DNA from: Escherichia phage Ec_Makalu_003
Sequence record: MN882349.1
Strand: one strand, 5' to 3'
DNA: 64,000 bases
The translations under genes were made by a program, and so were the position numbers. Of this stretch, positions 40,194-47,700 are shown in pieces. How positions within the stretch are numbered: the stretch's first letter is position 1; each line of letters starts with the position of its first letter. The notes beneath the pieces were generated by a model, which had not been told where the DNA came from, searched no databases, and saw only the letters and a list, made by a program, of their open reading frames with translations.

Positions 40194-40519
40194 CCTTTTT
40201 GTTCCATGAAAAGCGGTGCTGTTTCTTCTTTCAGTTTAATAACTAGCGCGGAAACTTCATCAAGAAAATCTTTTTCCATATGAGCAAGCATTGATTTAGA
40301 ATCTTTGATGACTTTCAAAGAATATTCACTTAGATTTCCTTTTCCTAACAATAATGCAGGATACACACTATGTGGGATCTCGATTTCATGATATTCGCTC
40401 ATAGTATAATATTTGTGAATTTTTAAATCTATATTTCTTCGTTGTACGTCCACATCAGCAATGACATACAGAAGTTCGATTTTATCACTTTTCTGGGAAA
40501 GGGTAGCATTCAAAAACAT
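40190..40519 (-). CDS. hypothetical protein, 109 aa
   Basis: ATG at 40519 preceded by GGAGGA. Confidence 0.5.
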   Translation of the reverse strand: MFLNATLSQKSDKIELLYVIADVDVQRRNIDLKIHKYYTMSEYHEIEIPHSVYPALLLGKGNLSEYSLKVIKDSKSMLAHMEKDFLDEVSALVIKLKEETAPLFMEQKG

Positions 40520-40549
40520 TGTTAATCCTCCGTTGTTTCGATGTGTGGT

Positions 40550-40577
40550 ATTATACATTACCGCGCCAGAATGTCAA
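40550..40577 (-). promoter_or_regulatory. early promoter, PeSL family
   Basis: TTGACA, 16 nt, TATAAT. Confidence 0.5.
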
Positions 40578-40638
40578 TATATTTTTCATAAAAATTTAGG
40601 CAATAAAAAGCCTCCCCGAAGGAAGGCTTTAAAATTCA

Positions 40639-41613
40639 TTACATCCCTAACAGAGCGTCAAGATCATCCAGATCAGAAGCGGAGGAAGTACCGCCACCCA
40701 GGTCCAGAGATGCCATCAGGTCATCAGCGGAAGAATCTAACGCCGTGCTAGCTGCGTTAATACCAACTACAGTGCTAGCTGCGGTAGTACCAGCGTCGAA
40801 TGCATTCATCTGTGCGTCAAAATCATCAAGCTGGCTGTTAATCGCTGCCGCAGCACTGGAAGCCGCAGCACCAGCTACCATAGAAACGCCCATAGTTTTC
40901 TTAAATTTGGTTTCCAGTTCATCGAACGGTTTAAACTGGCTAGGCGCTACAATCTCACTCAGATCAACCATGTTTTCCATCAGATATTTCTGATATGCTT
41001 CGTCTTCAATTTTCGGAAGCTGTGATTGCTGCATGAAACGAGAATCATCATAGTTCTGGTGTTTATCAACCTTCTTAGCTTTCAGGAGGAAGTTAGCACC
41101 GGAGAACACACAAGTTACATCTACCGGAACTTCGCCCATGTCGGTATTCACGTTAACCATCGCAACGATCTTATCATAAATTTTCTGACCGAAGCGGAAT
41201 TTAAATACCTTACCTTCGTTTTCTGGTGCTTGAGGATCTTTCAGTACCAGAATGTTTGCGTAGTAAGACGCTTTACGCTTAATCAGTTGCCATTCGGTTT
41301 TATCGGTATTGTACAAATCTTTTTCGTTAATATATTTGCACACAGGGCAAGAATCAAAATCACCGTGGGTGCTGGAGCAGTTTTCCCAATACCATTTTCC
41401 ATTAACTTTGAAGGAATGGTTTACCAGTTTCACAATCGGCAGACCGTCTTCTGTCTTAGACGGCAGGAAGCGAATCAGGGCTTCACCGTTACCTGCTGCA
41501 TCAGTCTTAATCTTCCACTCTTTCGGGTCTTCTTTGGAGAAACCGTTGCCACCTTTCAGTGCGGCCAGTTGAGCTTGCAGTTTGGAAGAATCTTGGCGTT
41601 TAAACATATTCAC
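40639..41613 (-). CDS. 32: single-stranded DNA-binding protein gp32
   Basis: [24 protein letters not shown] and acidic C-terminal tail match T4 gp32. Confidence 0.9.
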
Positions 41614-41667
41614 TATTCCTTCTTTTGATTAATTTACGAGACTATTATACAGATTTAAATTTACTTG

Positions 41668-42348
41668 TCAACTATTTGTTTCGGCTTTTAATTGAGATAT
41701 TTCTTTACACTCTTTAACGACTTTAACAAATAATGCTCTTGCTTTTGCGGCGTCAATAACAAGTAGTTTCTTGTACGCCTTCATTTTAACACTATAAGTT
41801 TGCCAAATCAAGTCTTTGGCTACCTTGTCGTGTTCGTCGATTATATTTAGAAAGCTATCTAACAACATAAACGACTCAAACGATATAATCCGATTTTGCA
41901 GTAGTTTAAAGATACCGCTAGTTTCGGTTGCGGGATTGTATGTAATTAGCTCTTTAAGAGTAACCCCGCGTTTCTCGGAGAAGTATACCAGACTTTTAAC
42001 GTCATCGTCAAATCTTGTTGCTGCATCGGTTATCTTTCCTATGTATTCCATATAAAAGCCGTATGCGTCAACATCAGTGATTTCACCTACCCATGCATCG
42101 GTATTAGCTACCAGATTGCTTAGGAATAGGAAGTATAATTCTCTTAGATTGTACTTTTCCGCTAATTTTGCGAAATAATACTTATCTCTGCGTTTATTGA
42201 ATGCGGCATCAGACAACCGCATCCTCCAATTGTATTTTACGCAATCATAACGCCCGTTCATATGAGCTTTCATCATGCAATATAACATATACACAGATTT
42301 AGCATTAATTCGCATATCTGGATCTGGAGGAAGACGGTTTCTGATCAT
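41668..42348 (-). CDS. 59: helicase loader gp59
   Basis: KSVYMLYCMMKAHMNGRYDCVKYNWRMRLSDAAFNKRRDKYYF closely parallels T4 gp59. Confidence 0.85.
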   Translation of the reverse strand: MIRNRLPPDPDMRINAKSVYMLYCMMKAHMNGRYDCVKYNWRMRLSDAAFNKRRDKYYFAKLAEKYNLRELYFLFLSNLVANTDAWVGEITDVDAYGFYMEYIGKITDAATRFDDDVKSLVYFSEKRGVTLKELITYNPATETSGIFKLLQNRIISFESFMLLDSFLNIIDEHDKVAKDLIWQTYSVKMKAYKKLLVIDAAKARALFVKVVKECKEISQLKAETNS

Positions 42349-42357
42349 ACATACCCC

Positions 42358-42627
42358 TTAAATATCGAGAGTGTTGGTCGGTTCGTCGATCACTCCCTTC
42401 CTGAGCGTTCTATTTACTATACATTCTTGTGTGATCTTGTCAATAATGGACACCGGAATATACTTCTGATAGTGACCATATTCGATAGAGTTTTCCTCTA
42501 CAAACTGAGTTGTCGCTTCAAGATAAGTCAATCCCTCTTCAACAACCAGTTTTTCGATTGCAAGACCGTTTGCTGTTTTGTTCGCGGCTTTTACCGCATG
42601 TTCATTAAGCATTGAACACCCGATCAT
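42358..42627 (-). CDS. 33: late transcription co-activator gp33
   Basis: YLEATTQFVEENSI matches the T4 gp33 core. Confidence 0.75.
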   Translation of the reverse strand: MIGCSMLNEHAVKAANKTANGLAIEKLVVEEGLTYLEATTQFVEENSIEYGHYQKYIPVSIIDKITQECIVNRTLRKGVIDEPTNTLDI

Positions 42628-42880
42628 AGAGTTCTACCGCTTCGTCGCGTTCTGCTTCGAAGGTTTCGCGCTGTTGCTGGTGATATAGTTTAAACAGAAT
42701 ACCCCACATTTTACCATCTACGCCTAATTCTTCTTTAGCACGCTGTTTGATCTCTTTGATCTTATCGCCATATGCTTCTTGAATGGTTTTCTGATCGCTG
42801 GCTTCTTTAATCAGTTGTGCCAGTGTATTTCCGTGTACTGCTTCATCAAATACTACTTTTTCTTTTTTCTGTTCAGTCAT
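42605..42880 (-). CDS. dsbA: dsDNA-binding protein DsbA-like (by position)
   Basis: 91 aa ORF in the T4 dsbA slot. Confidence 0.55.
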   Translation of the reverse strand: MTEQKKEKVVFDEAVHGNTLAQLIKEASDQKTIQEAYGDKIKEIKQRAKEELGVDGKMWGILFKLYHQQQRETFEAERDEAVELYDRVFNA

Positions 42881-42884
42881 AATA

Positions 42885-43484
42885 TTAACCCTCTTTAGTC
42901 ATTAATTGAAAACCACGTTCAGCTTTTGAGATTTCGCTAGGACGTAAATCATCACCTACATATTCTAGCATCATTTCTCTGATAATGTCAAGTGCTTTTT
43001 CATCACCTGATTTTAACTCGAACTCAAGTTCATAATGAGCAGTGTCGCCCAATCCTTCGCCTACTTTGCCATAATAGAAAGTGTCTTTGCACATTTCCAC
43101 TATACCACAACCCATATCTAGAGTCAATGACTTGCGATATGTCATTACTTGCATTATTGTAGTGATATAGTCTGAGTTTACCTCTAGACTATCAATAAAA
43201 TGGACGAACTCATCCCAATTTGAAAATGTCGTTTCCTCGCGGTTGAATAGTCCAGATTCATTATCACCAATTTTGACCATGATCTCTGATTTTCTACAGT
43301 CAAGTCGTGCATAAATTCCTTTTTGACGTAGCGCATGGTCTTCGGTATCATAATAAAATTCGTGTTTTAATATGTTATCTCGATCTACGATATTATAACC
43401 GTCATACATTGCCACCCACAAATCACAGATGGTTTCGACGCCAATTTGTGAGTGTGCATAGTATTTTAACTCAAGTTCTTTCAT
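42885..43484 (-). CDS. CYTH-like (triphosphate tunnel metalloenzyme) protein
   Basis: N-terminal ELELKYYA (ExExK), YARLD, NREETTF, C-terminal HYELEFELK (ExE), about 200 aa. Confidence 0.55.
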   Translation of the reverse strand: MKELELKYYAHSQIGVETICDLWVAMYDGYNIVDRDNILKHEFYYDTEDHALRQKGIYARLDCRKSEIMVKIGDNESGLFNREETTFSNWDEFVHFIDSLEVNSDYITTIMQVMTYRKSLTLDMGCGIVEMCKDTFYYGKVGEGLGDTAHYELEFELKSGDEKALDIIREMMLEYVGDDLRPSEISKAERGFQLMTKEG

Positions 43485-43494
43485 GTGTCAACCC

Positions 43495-44442
43495 TTAGAA
43501 CTCACCAATTTTCTGCAACATTTTAACTAACGCATTTGTTACAAAATAGTTATAAATTTTACCGCGTGGTGCTGGTTTAGATTTTTCCCATGCTAACAAA
43601 ATTTCATATTCGATGTTATCAGGAATAAATTCAAAATCAATAAGTTCGCGGTTTTCGTCAAAGCGTTGTGCTTCTTCCTCTGTCATCAAAGACTTTGGAT
43701 CTTCGGCATCGAAAATTTGCTCTAACCATTTGGTTGCAATTGGTTTAGCTCGTTCCCCTTCCAGCCGTGAGATAATGAAATCACTACGGCACTTGATGGA
43801 AGCTACACCGTCTTTTGCGTCACCCTTAACACATTTTACCATAAGGTCTTTGTAAGGACTACCATATTTGCATTTCTTCCATGCTTTCTGTACTGGTGCC
43901 CACTGTTTCACGTTTTTGTATTTGTGCAACTGTGTGTAGTCACCATCGCCGGAGTTGATTAGCACCTGGCGACCTTCTACAGAAAACTTTTTAGTTAACA
44001 CAGCGATTATATCGTCTGCCTCAACTTTGTCAACCTTAATAACGTGATAAGGCATGTTCTCTTTAAACTCTTCGGTGATCTTATTGATCGCAGCAAAGAT
44101 CATCTCCCAATCACGCGGATCTGCGTCTCGCTTTTCCTTACGGTTACGCTTGTAATAAGGTGCGATATCACGTCGCCAGTAACCTTTGCTAGAGTCAAAG
44201 GCAAGTACCGTAATCGGGTATTGCTCTTTGAATTTTGTCATATTATAACGCATGGTGTCAAGGATAAGATGACGGATCATACCTTCATTAATCGGATCTT
44301 CCGGCTTAAATGTATGAGAGATAGTAGCAATCATAAGCTGCGACATATCAATCAAATGCACACCTTCCGGCAGTTTATCTTCTGGATCATCGAAGAAATC
44401 ATTAAGTGTAGCGGTAGTTTTTGTAAACGGGTTATACGTCAT
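43495..44442 (-). CDS. rnh: RNase H (5'-3' exonuclease, FEN-like)
   Basis: GYWRRD, ADDIIAV, SGDGDYTQLHKYKNVKQW, PRGKIYNYFV parallel T4 RNase H. Confidence 0.85.
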   Translation of the reverse strand: MTYNPFTKTTATLNDFFDDPEDKLPEGVHLIDMSQLMIATISHTFKPEDPINEGMIRHLILDTMRYNMTKFKEQYPITVLAFDSSKGYWRRDIAPYYKRNRKEKRDADPRDWEMIFAAINKITEEFKENMPYHVIKVDKVEADDIIAVLTKKFSVEGRQVLINSGDGDYTQLHKYKNVKQWAPVQKAWKKCKYGSPYKDLMVKCVKGDAKDGVASIKCRSDFIISRLEGERAKPIATKWLEQIFDAEDPKSLMTEEEAQRFDENRELIDFEFIPDNIEYEILLAWEKSKPAPRGKIYNYFVTNALVKMLQKIGEF

Positions 44443-44444
44443 AA

Positions 44445-44657
44445 TTAAGTTCTCTCCACTCTCACAACAACATATTCGCCAAACGAGTTAGATACTTCAC
44501 GGTCATACCCGTATTTCTCCATAACTCGCAGAATTGCATTGTTTAATTCAGCACGGAAATAATTGTAATCCTTATCTGGGATTCTGTCAACTATCCATTT
44601 TGCACCGTCTGACAAATCAACTTTAACCATAATATCATCCTCTTTTGTTTCTATCAA
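44445..44657 (-). CDS. hypothetical protein, 70 aa
   Basis: ORF abutting the rnh end. Confidence 0.45.
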   Translation of the reverse strand: MIETKEDDIMVKVDLSDGAKWIVDRIPDKDYNYFRAELNNAILRVMEKYGYDREVSNSFGEYVVVRVERT

Positions 44658-44666
44658 GCCTCATTT

Positions 44667-44674
44667 TATAAATA
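44667..44674 (+). promoter_or_regulatory. T4-type late promoter TATAAATA upstream of gene 34
   Basis: exact TATAAATA about 30 nt before the gp34 ATG, followed by AAGGAGA. Confidence 0.55.
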
Positions 44675-44702
44675 TGAACATACTATAAAAGGAGACCCAA
44701 TA

Positions 44703-47700
44703 ATGGCAGATTTTTCTCAACATTTCAAGGCCACATTTGGCTTTGACGCTGGTAATGAAAAGGTCGTCAATGTAGCATTGGCTGATAAGAATGTCAACAC
44801 CGATGCGGTCAACGTTGAATTTTTCAATTACCATAATGGTATTACTCAGTATGACACAACTCGCGGTTATGATCAATACGGAACTACAATCTATCAAAAC
44901 CGTCCGTATTATGCAAAAGAAGATATCACAAAGCCAGCAGGTGATTTTGACCCGACTAAATGGCAAGCACTGCGCACGGACCCACGTTGGGATTATATTG
45001 CAGCAACTTCCGGTGATACTCCTTTACAGTCTGGTGATTATATCGCAGCAGATGGTCAATTTGCAAACTTGACTTTCTCTATGCCATCTAAACCAGCAGA
45101 GGGGGACACTATAACAGTAAAAGATATCGGTGGCAAGTGTGGTGTTAACGAATTATCGTTCTTGAGTTCAGGACATGAGTTTTATCATAACGGTAATGTG
45201 TATAACCGAAAATGGTATTGCACTACCCCGTATGCAATGAACTATTTCATCTTTGTTCGTAATCGTTGGCATGTTTATCAGACAGGAACAGAGCCACGCG
45301 GTGTGTACGCACAGCCAGCGATTGATGCTATTCAAATGCAGAATGGTGATCAGGTATTTCGTCGTAGTTCTTTGGGTAATATTACCTTAGTGCTTCCTAA
45401 GTTTGCCAACAATGGCGACATGATCCAGACTACAGACCTTGACGGATTAACCGCAACCAACCACGTTACGGTTAAAGTTCATGAGCACGCAGAAGAACAA
45501 TCAATTGGCACGTCCGGTCTAAAAGAGATTATCGGTAAGCGTAGCGGTCATGGTGTATTCATCTTTGACAAGACGGAAAACTTATGGCGTTTGTGGGATG
45601 GTGATCAGTCTGTTCGTCTTAAACCGATCATCGATGACACTCGCTTGCAACCTAATAGCTATGTTGCCGTATTTGGTGATCGTGATGTTACTCTGACGCT
45701 GCCGACCAATGTCGAGCCGGGTGATCGTATTCAAGTTTCTATGCAGTATATGCACGGAAACCAGAATTGCCGTATTATCACCGCCACAGAGGATACAAAA
45801 ATCCTCATGTCGAAAAACATGGTTCAGTTTCCGAAGCGTAGCGAGTACCCATTCAACGGGACCGACACATGGAAGGAAGTGTCTGAATTGTCGTTCAATG
45901 CGGCTAGTGATTATGTACCTTATCTGGAGTTCTCTTATTCAGAAGGTGATGATGGTAAGAAACATTGGCTGGTAGCACACTCTCATCCGATCGTCGAACG
46001 AGTAGACCCTACTCGTAAAGATCGTGTTGGTGTCATTGCACTGGCTACCCAGACTGAAACGAATAAAAACCATGAAGAGAATCCTAGCGACGAAGTTGCC
46101 GTAACACCAAAAATGCTGGCTAATAAAACAGCCAACGAAACTCGACGCGGTATTGCTCGTATTGCTACTCAGGCGGAAACGCATCAAGATACTGGTTCCA
46201 GCTTCCTGGATGATGTTATCGTTACACCTAAAAAGTTAAATGACTGTGTTGCTACCGAAGCCCGTCGTGGTGTGATGGAAATTGCAACCCAGCACGAAAC
46301 CAATGAAGGTTTAGACGATACACGCGCTATTACTCCTAAGAAATTAGAAGAACGTCGCGCTTCCGAAGACCTCGCTGGTATTGCTGAAATTGTTCAGGTA
46401 GGCGGTCGTGCTGCCGCTCGACGTGGTGAAGCTGGTACAGGGATCTATAACATCAATGACCATGCTAAAATTGTTACACCACAAAACATCAACGAGGTCA
46501 AGGCGACCGAAACTTCCCGTGGTGTTGGCTATCTGGCAACTGACGCGGAAGTGCAAGGGGCTACAGAATCAACCCCGCAAGATGCTTTACTAATCACGAC
46601 TCGCACGCTAACGAAACGTACTGCTACCGAATCGCGCACTGGTATCGCTGAAATTGCAACTCAGGAAGAAACAAACTTAGGTCAAAGTGATAACCATATC
46701 ATCACGCCTAAAAAGCTGCATACTCGCCGTGCGACGGAAACTCTACACGGTTTAGCAGAAATTGCAACTCAGCCGGAATTTGACGCAGGTCTTGACGATG
46801 CTCGCATTTCTACCCCATTGAAGATTAAAACCTTCTTTGAGAATGCACAGCGTTTGAAAGTAGATCCGACTCAGGGGCTTAACCTTACTGGTGATTTGTG
46901 GCAAGGTATCATGATCAGCGGTCTGGACGCAACCGAAGACACAAAAGGTGTCGCTAAAGTTGCTACTACTCAGCTTACTGACGCTGGTCAAGATGATACT
47001 ACAATCATCACGCCTAAAAAGCTGCAAGGCAAAAAGGCCACCGAAGGTAAAGAAGGTATTATCCGAGTTGGTACTCAAGCCGAAACCGTGGCTGGTACAC
47101 TGGCTAATGTAGCAATTTCTCCGAAGAACTTCAAATATGTTGTTCAGACAGAGGATACATGGAAAGCAACCGAAGCTCGTCGTGGTTTCTTGAAAGTTGC
47201 TACTCAGGAAAACTGTTTTGTTGGTGACAATCTGCAAGGTTCTACTCAAGAACTAGGAAACTATCAGCATGACGGAATTGCTGTTACTCCGAAAGGATTA
47301 AACTACGCACTTGCTAATTTCTTGCCTAAGATGGCAACCGCTCAGAATAGTTTGAAATTGGGTAACGTAGAGGCCGCTAAATGGGCGCGTAGAGACATTG
47401 ACCAGACCATAGAGAGCAATTACACGTTTAATAAAAACGTTAACGTGAAGGGCGATTTAGAGTGCTTAAAATCAGGTTCCTTTGAAACTCTGTATGTGAC
47501 TAAGAACTCTACTGATGATCCGAGTAATGGTCATCTGGTGTTGGGTGAGCGTGGAGTTGACGGTCACACCGGAATTACTCTGCATGGCACAACCGCATCG
47601 GAAGGCATGAAAAACTCCTGGTCTATTATCGTTGGTGGTACTGGAACGGCGCAAGCAGTTAATAGTGGCGCTATCGCTTTCGGTCAAATCAATGATGGTG

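Follow-up and report, generated by a model that had tools for sequence, protein, structure and literature searches.

A YgiF-type triphosphate tunnel metalloenzyme predicted from a gene between rnh and dsbA in Escherichia phage Ec_Makalu_003 and other Krischvirus phages

The DNA examined here is a stretch of 64,000 nucleotides from Escherichia phage Ec_Makalu_003 (MN882349.1), which we refer to as the window. An open reading frame (ORF) of 199 codons is located between the genes rnh and dsbA on the minus strand and, as judged from profile searches and a structural model, encodes a stand-alone, single-domain triphosphate tunnel metalloenzyme (TTM) of the YgiF branch of the CYTH superfamily. We infer, for both the hydrolytic activity and the timing of expression, that the product is probably an early-expressed triphosphatase of the YgiF type. 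The gene, here called the CYTH gene, has the following position:

42885..43484, minus strand: CYTH/TTM gene, 199 aa, ATG start, TAA stop; orthologue of RB49p245 / RB49ORF244c / phi1p245

Family membership and predicted fold

The Pfam CYTH profile (PF01928) matched the protein with 32.2 bits, above the gathering cut-off of 23.2 bits (E 1.2e-7), and the match covered profile positions 21 to 178 of 179. The AlphaFold2 model, which was built from an alignment of 16 sequences, had a predicted local distance difference test score (pLDDT) of 92.3 and a predicted template modelling score (pTM) of 0.86. In this model, the eight long strands are arranged as an eight-strand antiparallel β-barrel tunnel that matches the solved TTM structures, with three helices on the outside and a further one at the C-terminus. 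A Foldseek search against the PDB placed YgiF at the top (E 3.6e-12, query TM-score (TMq) 0.75), followed by other TTM proteins, while the class IV adenylate cyclase CyaB was a comparatively poor match. The initial annotation had described the ORF as a CYTH-like TTM inserted between rnh and dsbA; the Pfam match, the modelled barrel and the synteny described below agree on this identity, although two further elements of that annotation, a possible cyclase function and the implied novelty, did not hold up, as shown below.

A profile built from the phage family matched Escherichia coli YgiF across the whole tunnel domain, with BH2851, GBAA_1210 and SaTTM ranked far below, and an hhalign comparison of the phage clade with a clade formed by YgiF and other cellular relatives gave a probability of 99.8% and an E-value of 2e-28. 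By profile, hhalign and Foldseek, YgiF is the closest relative among the characterised CYTH proteins. The protein also matched PHROG 14893, a family labelled "unknown function", with an E-value of 1e-131, and the only match in NCBIfam was a sub-threshold one to a HAD profile (E 0.077). With a single sequence as query, the top PDB match was the TriTu immunity protein (87 aa, 7zhm_C; E 0.017, residues 21 to 100); this is most likely a chance match, since it was gone once a profile was used as query, which lifted YgiF to an E-value of 2.2e-21. An exhaustive phmmer search over 1.84 billion representative sequences retrieved 8 matches at E<=1e-3, which suggests that the family is small and divergent. 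The cellular relatives were reached by profile search rather than by single-sequence phmmer.

The phage protein differs from E. coli YgiF (PDB 5a60/5a61) in several respects. It is 199 aa long compared with 433 aa and lacks the CHAD domain, its β3-β4 hairpin has two residues fewer, and the long insertion at about residues 95 to 115 of YgiF is reduced in length. Furthermore, the second tunnel arginine of YgiF (R58) is replaced by Asp and Gly54 by Tyr, and the phage version is encoded by a virulent phage, where it is placed with replication genes and presumably expressed with them. Bacteria and archaea have stand-alone CYTH proteins with the same architecture, size (about 200 aa) and motifs, such as those of Sulfurirhabdus autotrophica (P0053) and an archaeal metagenome-assembled genome (P0046) and BH2851 (PDB 2gfg). 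These stand-alone cellular proteins were retrieved by the phage-family profile with E-values of 1e-25 to 1e-52, and the strands in the AlphaFold2 model of P0053 follow the same order as those of the phage model. However, their identity to the phage protein is only 24% to 31%, they keep the pair of arginines in the RxR motif and the small residue before it, unlike the phage protein, and in the one context that was looked up (P0050) the gene sits in a cellular neighbourhood of housekeeping type, unlike the phage gene.

The TTM fold also recurs in other viruses, namely in Aeromonas phages Aeh1 (ORF004c), 65.2 and D3 and in the triphosphatase domains of giant-virus capping enzymes. These represent separate lineages, with Foldseek E-values of 1e-4 to 1e-7 and 11% to 16% identity, and none of these other phage or giant-virus CYTH proteins was retrieved by tblastn with the Krischvirus family. 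The different gene number of the Aeh1 member suggests a different genome position.

A 2.4-kb stretch of the window was 99.2% identical to Escherichia phage Ec_Makalu_001, and its identity to numerous other Krischvirus (RB49-like) phages, among them ECD7 and Phi1, was 95% to 97%. Among 50,697 phage genomes searched with tblastn, the CYTH protein was found at full length in 58 records, all of them Krischvirus. Tblastn searches of the isolated phages with two divergent homologues, P0044 and P0045, recovered the same 58 Krischvirus records only, so there is no second cultured genus with the family. A scan of IMG/VR with the family alignment yielded three near-identical Krischvirus contigs and nothing else, and IMG/VR scans with P0044 and P0045 gave no matches; the genomic contexts of these two proteins are from exact-protein look-ups.

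Most of the 58 records label the gene as encoding a "hypothetical protein". The label "inorganic triphosphatase" is used in two Makalu records, including Ec_Makalu_001, and "adenylate cyclase" in phages AV108, KMB43 and PHB13. The RefSeq record of RB49 carries the note "similar to P45267, P30871, HI1598, ygiF", and Nolan et al. 2006 (PMC1524935) listed RB49ORF244c as a CYTH domain protein (E 0.0026). Because of these two sources, the identification is already known and about twenty years old, the domain assignment having been in public annotation since 2003-2006, and the novelty implied by the initial annotation was overstated, given also the GenBank labels. What is newly added here is the syntenic position kept to 32% identity, the allelic cassette, the altered RxR motif and the embedded promoter-like site, which are modest additions.

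Conserved active site residues and the predicted activity

The residues expected to line the tunnel were assigned by alignment to YgiF. The motifs quoted in the initial annotation were all located in the protein, ELELKYYA at residues 3 to 10, YARLD at 58 to 62, NREETTF at 81 to 87 and HYELEFELK at 150 to 158. The segments that correspond to functional sites in YgiF are the following:

43464..43478, minus strand: ExExK signature, codons 3-7 (E-L-E-L-K); E3 and E5 are the counterparts of E4 and E6 of YgiF at metal site 2, K7 that of K8
43299..43313, minus strand: x-R-x-R strand, codons 58-62 (Y-A-R-L-D); R60 is the probable catalytic Arg (YgiF R56), D62 stands at the position of YgiF R58
43270..43272, minus strand: invariant Lys, codon 71; corresponds to YgiF K69
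43011..43031, minus strand: last barrel strand, codons 152-158 (E-L-E-F-E-L-K); E154 corresponds to YgiF E160 (metal 1), E156 to E162 (metal 2)
42912..42929, minus strand: C-terminal helix, codons 186-191 (S-K-A-E-R-G); YgiF has SKAARG

In YgiF, residues E4, E6 and E162 bind the catalytic metal 2, E160 binds the substrate-bound metal 1, R56 is the catalytic arginine, and K69 contributes to substrate binding and to the orientation of the metal-2 glutamates (Martinez et al. 2015, PMC4641920). Both metal sites are present in the phage protein, with E154 at metal 1 and E3, E5 and E156 at metal 2. No homologue, even at 32% identity, departed from E3-L-E5-L-K7, and eight representatives of the allele classes, which also extend to 32% identity, were invariant at E3, E5, R60, K71, R82, E84, R117, E154, E156, K187 and R190. 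In the C-terminal helix S186, K187, E189, R190 and G191 were invariant. Conservation along the strands alternates with a period of two, as expected for side chains lining a tunnel, and the least conserved parts are the outer helices at residues 13 to 29 and 89 to 107. These residues predict a two-metal triphosphatase.

The mechanism would follow that of YgiF. A triphosphate moiety complexed with Mg2+ or Mn2+ would bind in the centre of the closed eight-strand β-barrel, where it would be held by K7, R60, K71, R82, R117 and K158, together with K187 and R190 of the C-terminal helix. Metal site 1 would be completed by E154, and R60 would assist the leaving group. The default substrate, by homology, would be inorganic tripolyphosphate (PPPi), to be cleaved into pyrophosphate (PPi) and phosphate (Pi).

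The motif around the catalytic arginine is Y58-x-R60-x-D62 in the phage protein, compared with small-x-R-x-R in the YgiF-like proteins, in a register that is not fully certain. We read R60 as the first, catalytic arginine because hhalign, three of the four HMMER alignments (those to BH2851, GBAA_1210 and SaTTM) and a MAFFT alignment with intermediate sequences agree on this placement, and because the hairpin geometry points the same way: in the phage AlphaFold2 model the loop is at residues 63 to 66 and the partner of K71 is Y58, which precedes R60 by two positions, and in the model of P0053 the turn is at residues 60 to 61 and K68 pairs with A53, two positions before R55.

The initial annotation had left room for an enzyme that makes a nucleotide signal, and this option was not supported. 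According to Vogt et al. 2021 (PMC8233210), class IV adenylate cyclases are recognised by an HFxxxxExExK extension used for adenine stacking, by ExA instead of the hydrolase ExE on the last barrel strand, and by a small residue in place of the first arginine of RxR. All three sequence rules fail here: there is no room for the HF extension, since only M1-K2 precede E3, the ExE of the last strand (E154-F-E156) is kept and invariant, and the first arginine is retained as R60 (in the alternative register the residue would be Tyr, which is not small either). CyaB (PDB 2fjt/3n10) has the CYTH superfamily and the barrel fold in common with the phage protein. This shared superfamily, the "adenylate cyclase" label in AV108, KMB43 and PHB13, and a weak cyclase side activity reported for some plant TTMs could be taken to favour an adenylate or nucleotidyl cyclase of the CyaB type that would produce a cyclic nucleotide in the infected cell; given the three failed rules and the poor structural match, we regard such a role as extremely improbable. 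The GenBank labels conflict with the published class IV determinants and, on the residues, look unsupported.

Gene organization, expression and an allelic cassette

The CYTH gene is a real gene and not a chance ORF, since it occurs at full length in the 58 Krischvirus records, is under purifying selection and is preceded by a Shine-Dalgarno-like AAGGG. The first bases of this element lie within the TAA stop codon of rnh (43495-43497), and a ribosome-binding site is annotated at the same spot ahead of the gene in Ec_Makalu_001. The neighbouring features are:

43495..44442, minus strand: rnh, upstream (T4-type RNase H / 5'-3' exonuclease; PF09293 E 1.8e-37, PF02739 E 6e-18)
43485..43494, minus strand: spacer of 10 nt between the rnh stop and the CYTH start, with the ribosome-binding site
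42605..42880, minus strand: dsbA, downstream (late-transcription dsDNA-binding protein; PF11126 E 5.4e-22)
42358-42627, minus strand: gp33
41668-42348, minus strand: gp59
40639-41613, minus strand: gp32
44703, plus (opposite) strand: start of gene 34

The spacing between rnh and the CYTH gene indicates packing of the operon type. The CYTH stop is separated from the dsbA start by 4 nt, and the dsbA ribosome-binding site is located inside the last CYTH codons. This tight spacing suggests that the gene is co-transcribed with rnh and dsbA-33-59. In T4 (NC_000866), rnh is followed directly by dsbA with a gap of 8 nt, as the initial annotation had said, and the CYTH gene is therefore an extra gene relative to T4.

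All phage homologues that could be placed are followed directly by dsbA and gp33, and rnh precedes them on every contig that extends far enough. This synteny holds for P0041, P0043 (48% identity), P0044 (36%) and P0045 (32%).

Three promoter-like sites of the sigma-70 type were identified in and around the gene:

44562..44590, minus strand: early-type site upstream of rnh (GTTGACA, 17 nt, TACAAT), candidate start of a transcript covering the CYTH gene
44006..44033, minus strand: perfect-consensus site inside rnh (TTGACA, 16 nt, TATAAT), a putative promoter
42962..42991, minus strand: site in the CYTH 3' end (TTGACA, 18 nt, TG-extended TAGAAT), placed so that it may drive dsbA-33-59

Early promoters in RB49 prefer a G at position -33, which gives GTTGAC (Nolan et al., PMC1524935), and the upstream sigma-70-like sites resemble this type in their sequence. 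The only T4-type late promoter motif nearby was TATAAATA at 44667-44674, which is on the plus strand ahead of gene 34; no TATAAATA was found on the minus strand near the CYTH gene, and the idea of a late gene was therefore dropped. Taken together, the location in the rnh-dsbA-33-59-32 block, the operon packing, the upstream promoters of sigma-70 type and the lack of a late promoter on the strand suggest that the gene is probably early. It was also noted that the minus strand of positions 40400-45000 contained 29 sigma-70-like sites compared with 13.2 expected from shuffled sequences. Perfect sites with TTGACA, 16 nt and TATAAT occurred three times in this segment, at 44033, 41671 and 40577 on the minus strand, and the one at 41671 coincides with the early promoter annotated ahead of gene 32 in RB49.

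The sequence comparisons revealed an allelic cassette inside the gene:

43040..43470, minus strand: allelic cassette, about codons 5-148; by sliding identity about 55% DNA identity to phage Skers, flanks 95-100%

A cassette with about 55% DNA identity was likewise seen in comparison with the metagenomic locus L006, and over the last 150 nt or so of the CYTH ORF the identity to Skers is back at 92% to 97%. At the protein level, the window and Skers were 96.5% identical for rnh, 57.3% for CYTH, 98.9% for dsbA, 100% for gp33 and 97.3% for gp59, and the corresponding values for L006 were 99.0%, 59.3%, 96.7%, 98.8% and 99.6%. The synonymous divergence (dS) was saturated inside the cassette, at about 2.7, compared with 0.04 to 0.26 in the flanking genes. 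The saturation of synonymous sites suggests that old alleles have been moved by recombination, rather than that the gene has undergone rapid local adaptive change. Pairwise ratios of non-synonymous to synonymous divergence (dN/dS) were 0.16 to 0.31 for the CYTH gene and 0 to 0.14 for its neighbours; judging from these values, selection on the gene is purifying but relaxed, and positive selection was rejected since the ratios were below 1. At least four allele classes were distinguished in Krischvirus, the Phi1-type, RB49-type, Skers-type and P0041-type. A second, small mosaic patch was observed beside the CYTH gene in the 3' part of rnh (43590-43680, minus strand), where the DNA identity to Skers was 58% to 75%, compared with more than 90% in the rest of rnh.

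The promoter-like site in the CYTH 3' end (42991-42962) lies 107 nt before the CYTH stop codon and was conserved in RB49, GEC-3S, Phi1, Skers and L006. Equivalent internal sites were found at non-homologous codons in two other loci, the very divergent L011 (perfect TTGACA, 17 nt, TATAAT) and L012, while L008 had no equivalent. A dsbA-33 promoter that overlaps the region for the CYTH C-terminus is a plausible reason, on sequence grounds, for the conservation of the 3' end and for the recombination boundary.

Several side observations were made in the same block. A small ORF between rnh and gene 34 (44445-44657, minus strand) matched phrog_3594, a family of unknown function; it encodes 70 aa from a TTG codon, or 61 aa from the ATG at 44630 that is annotated in Ec_Makalu_001. 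T4 has no gene at this position, and the ORF therefore represents a second Krischvirus-specific insertion in the block. The longest ORF for gp33 (89 aa) overlaps the 3' end of dsbA by 23 nt (42605-42627, minus strand), and if the start is set as in the annotation of related phages, the protein has 84 aa and the overlap is 8 nt. The gp59-gp32 junction (41614-41667) is a landing site for homing endonucleases, with an HNH endonuclease in Skers (L002 5802-6398) and SegG in T4 (L017 1410-2042); in the window, as in RB49, it consists only of a 54-nt spacer.

Candidate substrates and roles in infection

PPPi is the single most likely substrate by homology to YgiF, although we give it less than an even chance, and several observations weigh against a YgiF-type triphosphatase acting on it. 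YgiF accounts for only a marginal share of the PPPase activity in E. coli, most of which is due to inorganic pyrophosphatase, and PPPi was undetectable (Kohn et al. 2012, PMC3440374). Since the host removes PPPi efficiently and the share of YgiF is marginal, a phage PPPi scavenger seems redundant. No match to the CHAD domain (PF05235) was found in the protein, which ends 8 residues past the C-terminal helix of the tunnel. The second tunnel arginine (R58 in YgiF) is replaced by D62 in all Krischvirus alleles, and distantly related homologues from phages have D, N or S there. Y58 of the Krischvirus alleles occupies the position of Trp53 in thiamine triphosphatase (ThTPase), where ThTPases stack their substrate; the lost arginine and the Tyr at the stacking position together hint at a different substrate. 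In addition, two alignments to YgiF, one from HMMER and one global, were shifted by 2, with R60 placed on the second arginine, and if this register is right, Tyr58 would replace the catalytic arginine and the activity could be altered. In phage vB_EcoM_G2494 (L016 401-996), which is 1 of the 58 records, the gene is annotated as two ORFs of 67 and 130 aa; the split implies a frameshift, which may reflect a pseudogene or a sequencing error, and if it is real, the gene may be dispensable. Finally, our search of the literature on phage CYTH/TTM and ygiF-like proteins found no functional study of any member.

The YxRxD change and the missing CHAD domain allow for another substrate, such as a nucleoside or deoxynucleoside triphosphate (NTP or dNTP), a nucleotide messenger, thiamine triphosphate (ThTP) or 5'-triphosphorylated RNA (ppp-RNA). 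An enzyme that acts on an organic triphosphate instead of PPPi, for example a (d)NTP, ThTP or a non-canonical or messenger nucleotide such as deoxyinosine triphosphate (dITP) or guanosine pentaphosphate (pppGpp), and thereby reprogrammes host metabolism or blunts a defence system that relies on or detects this kind of molecule, is a possibility that we consider unlikely. The clade-specific Y58-x-R60-x-D62 replaces small-x-R-x-R, an aromatic residue at this position marks the ThTPases and plant TTM1/2, where it stacks on the ring of the substrate, and the loss of one tunnel arginine lowers the positive charge. Compared with mammalian ThTPase (PDB 3bhd/5a64), to which the similarity is much lower than to YgiF, the phage protein has the aromatic residue and first arginine of the W/Y-x-R-x-R motif (Y58 and R60) but Asp in place of the second arginine, and phage homologues at a greater distance have V or I instead of the Tyr. 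The redundancy of bulk PPPi removal in E. coli also favours an organic substrate. Against it stands the specificity for PPPi of the nearest relative that has been characterised. The breakdown of unwanted NTPs was proposed by Iyer et al. as a task of CYTH enzymes in phages, and immune messengers that bear a triphosphate exist, as exemplified by dITP in Kongming, but the known phage counter-measure to that system is a deoxynucleoside monophosphate phosphatase and not a CYTH enzyme. Furthermore, the PADLOC profiles gave no match to the protein at E<=1, and no paper listed by our literature searches on phage defence and counter-defence mentioned CYTH, nor was a link to immunity found. The initial annotation's ideas of interference with an immune nucleotide signal or of action on RNA 5' ends gained no positive support from these searches. 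The non-synonymous rate, which is 4 to 10 times that of the neighbours, and the swaps of allelic cassettes form a pattern common in host-interaction genes; however, fast evolution and mosaicism are widespread among the accessory genes of T4-like phages and are no proof of an arms race. The more specific proposal of a triphosphatase for counter-defence or host takeover with a substrate other than PPPi appears rather improbable to us. Here, the substrate would be a triphosphate nucleotide messenger or its precursor (dITP-like, pppGpp-like or a linear ppp-oligonucleotide) or a primer-derived ppp-oligoribonucleotide, and the swapped, fast-diverging outer surface would result from an arms race with a host sensor or inhibitor.

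The position of the gene directly downstream of rnh in a replication block, with the CYTH-dsbA-33 order kept to 32% identity, brings to mind an RNA 5'-triphosphatase that would act on the 5'-ppp ends of primers, on ppp-oligoribonucleotides released by RNase H or on the 5' ends of mRNA, for example by promoting the decay of host mRNA. The primers of T4-type phages carry 5'-triphosphates, and the Cet1-type and viral RNA triphosphatases share the TTM fold and were among the structural matches. The protein did not, however, qualify as a member of the Cet1-like RNA triphosphatase subfamily, and we judge this role to be quite unlikely. The variable regions are surface helices, one tunnel arginine is lost and the alternative register removes the catalytic arginine, all of which would suit a protein that merely binds a polyphosphate-type ligand, as a sponge or sensor, or that interacts with other proteins via its fast-evolving outer surface. 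But no residue of the two-metal catalytic set has changed over deep divergence, which would not be needed for mere binding, and conservation is highest in the tunnel, making a binder very improbable.

With a YgiF-type triphosphatase as the probable product, the efficient removal of PPPi by the host raises the question of what a virulent T4-like phage gains from such an enzyme. The fixed position and catalytic core, with the rest of the protein swapped as a cassette, make the CYTH gene a reasonable candidate for host interaction among the genes of the block. As the role of the YgiF-type proteins in bacteria is unsettled, a phage phenotype could inform the whole family.

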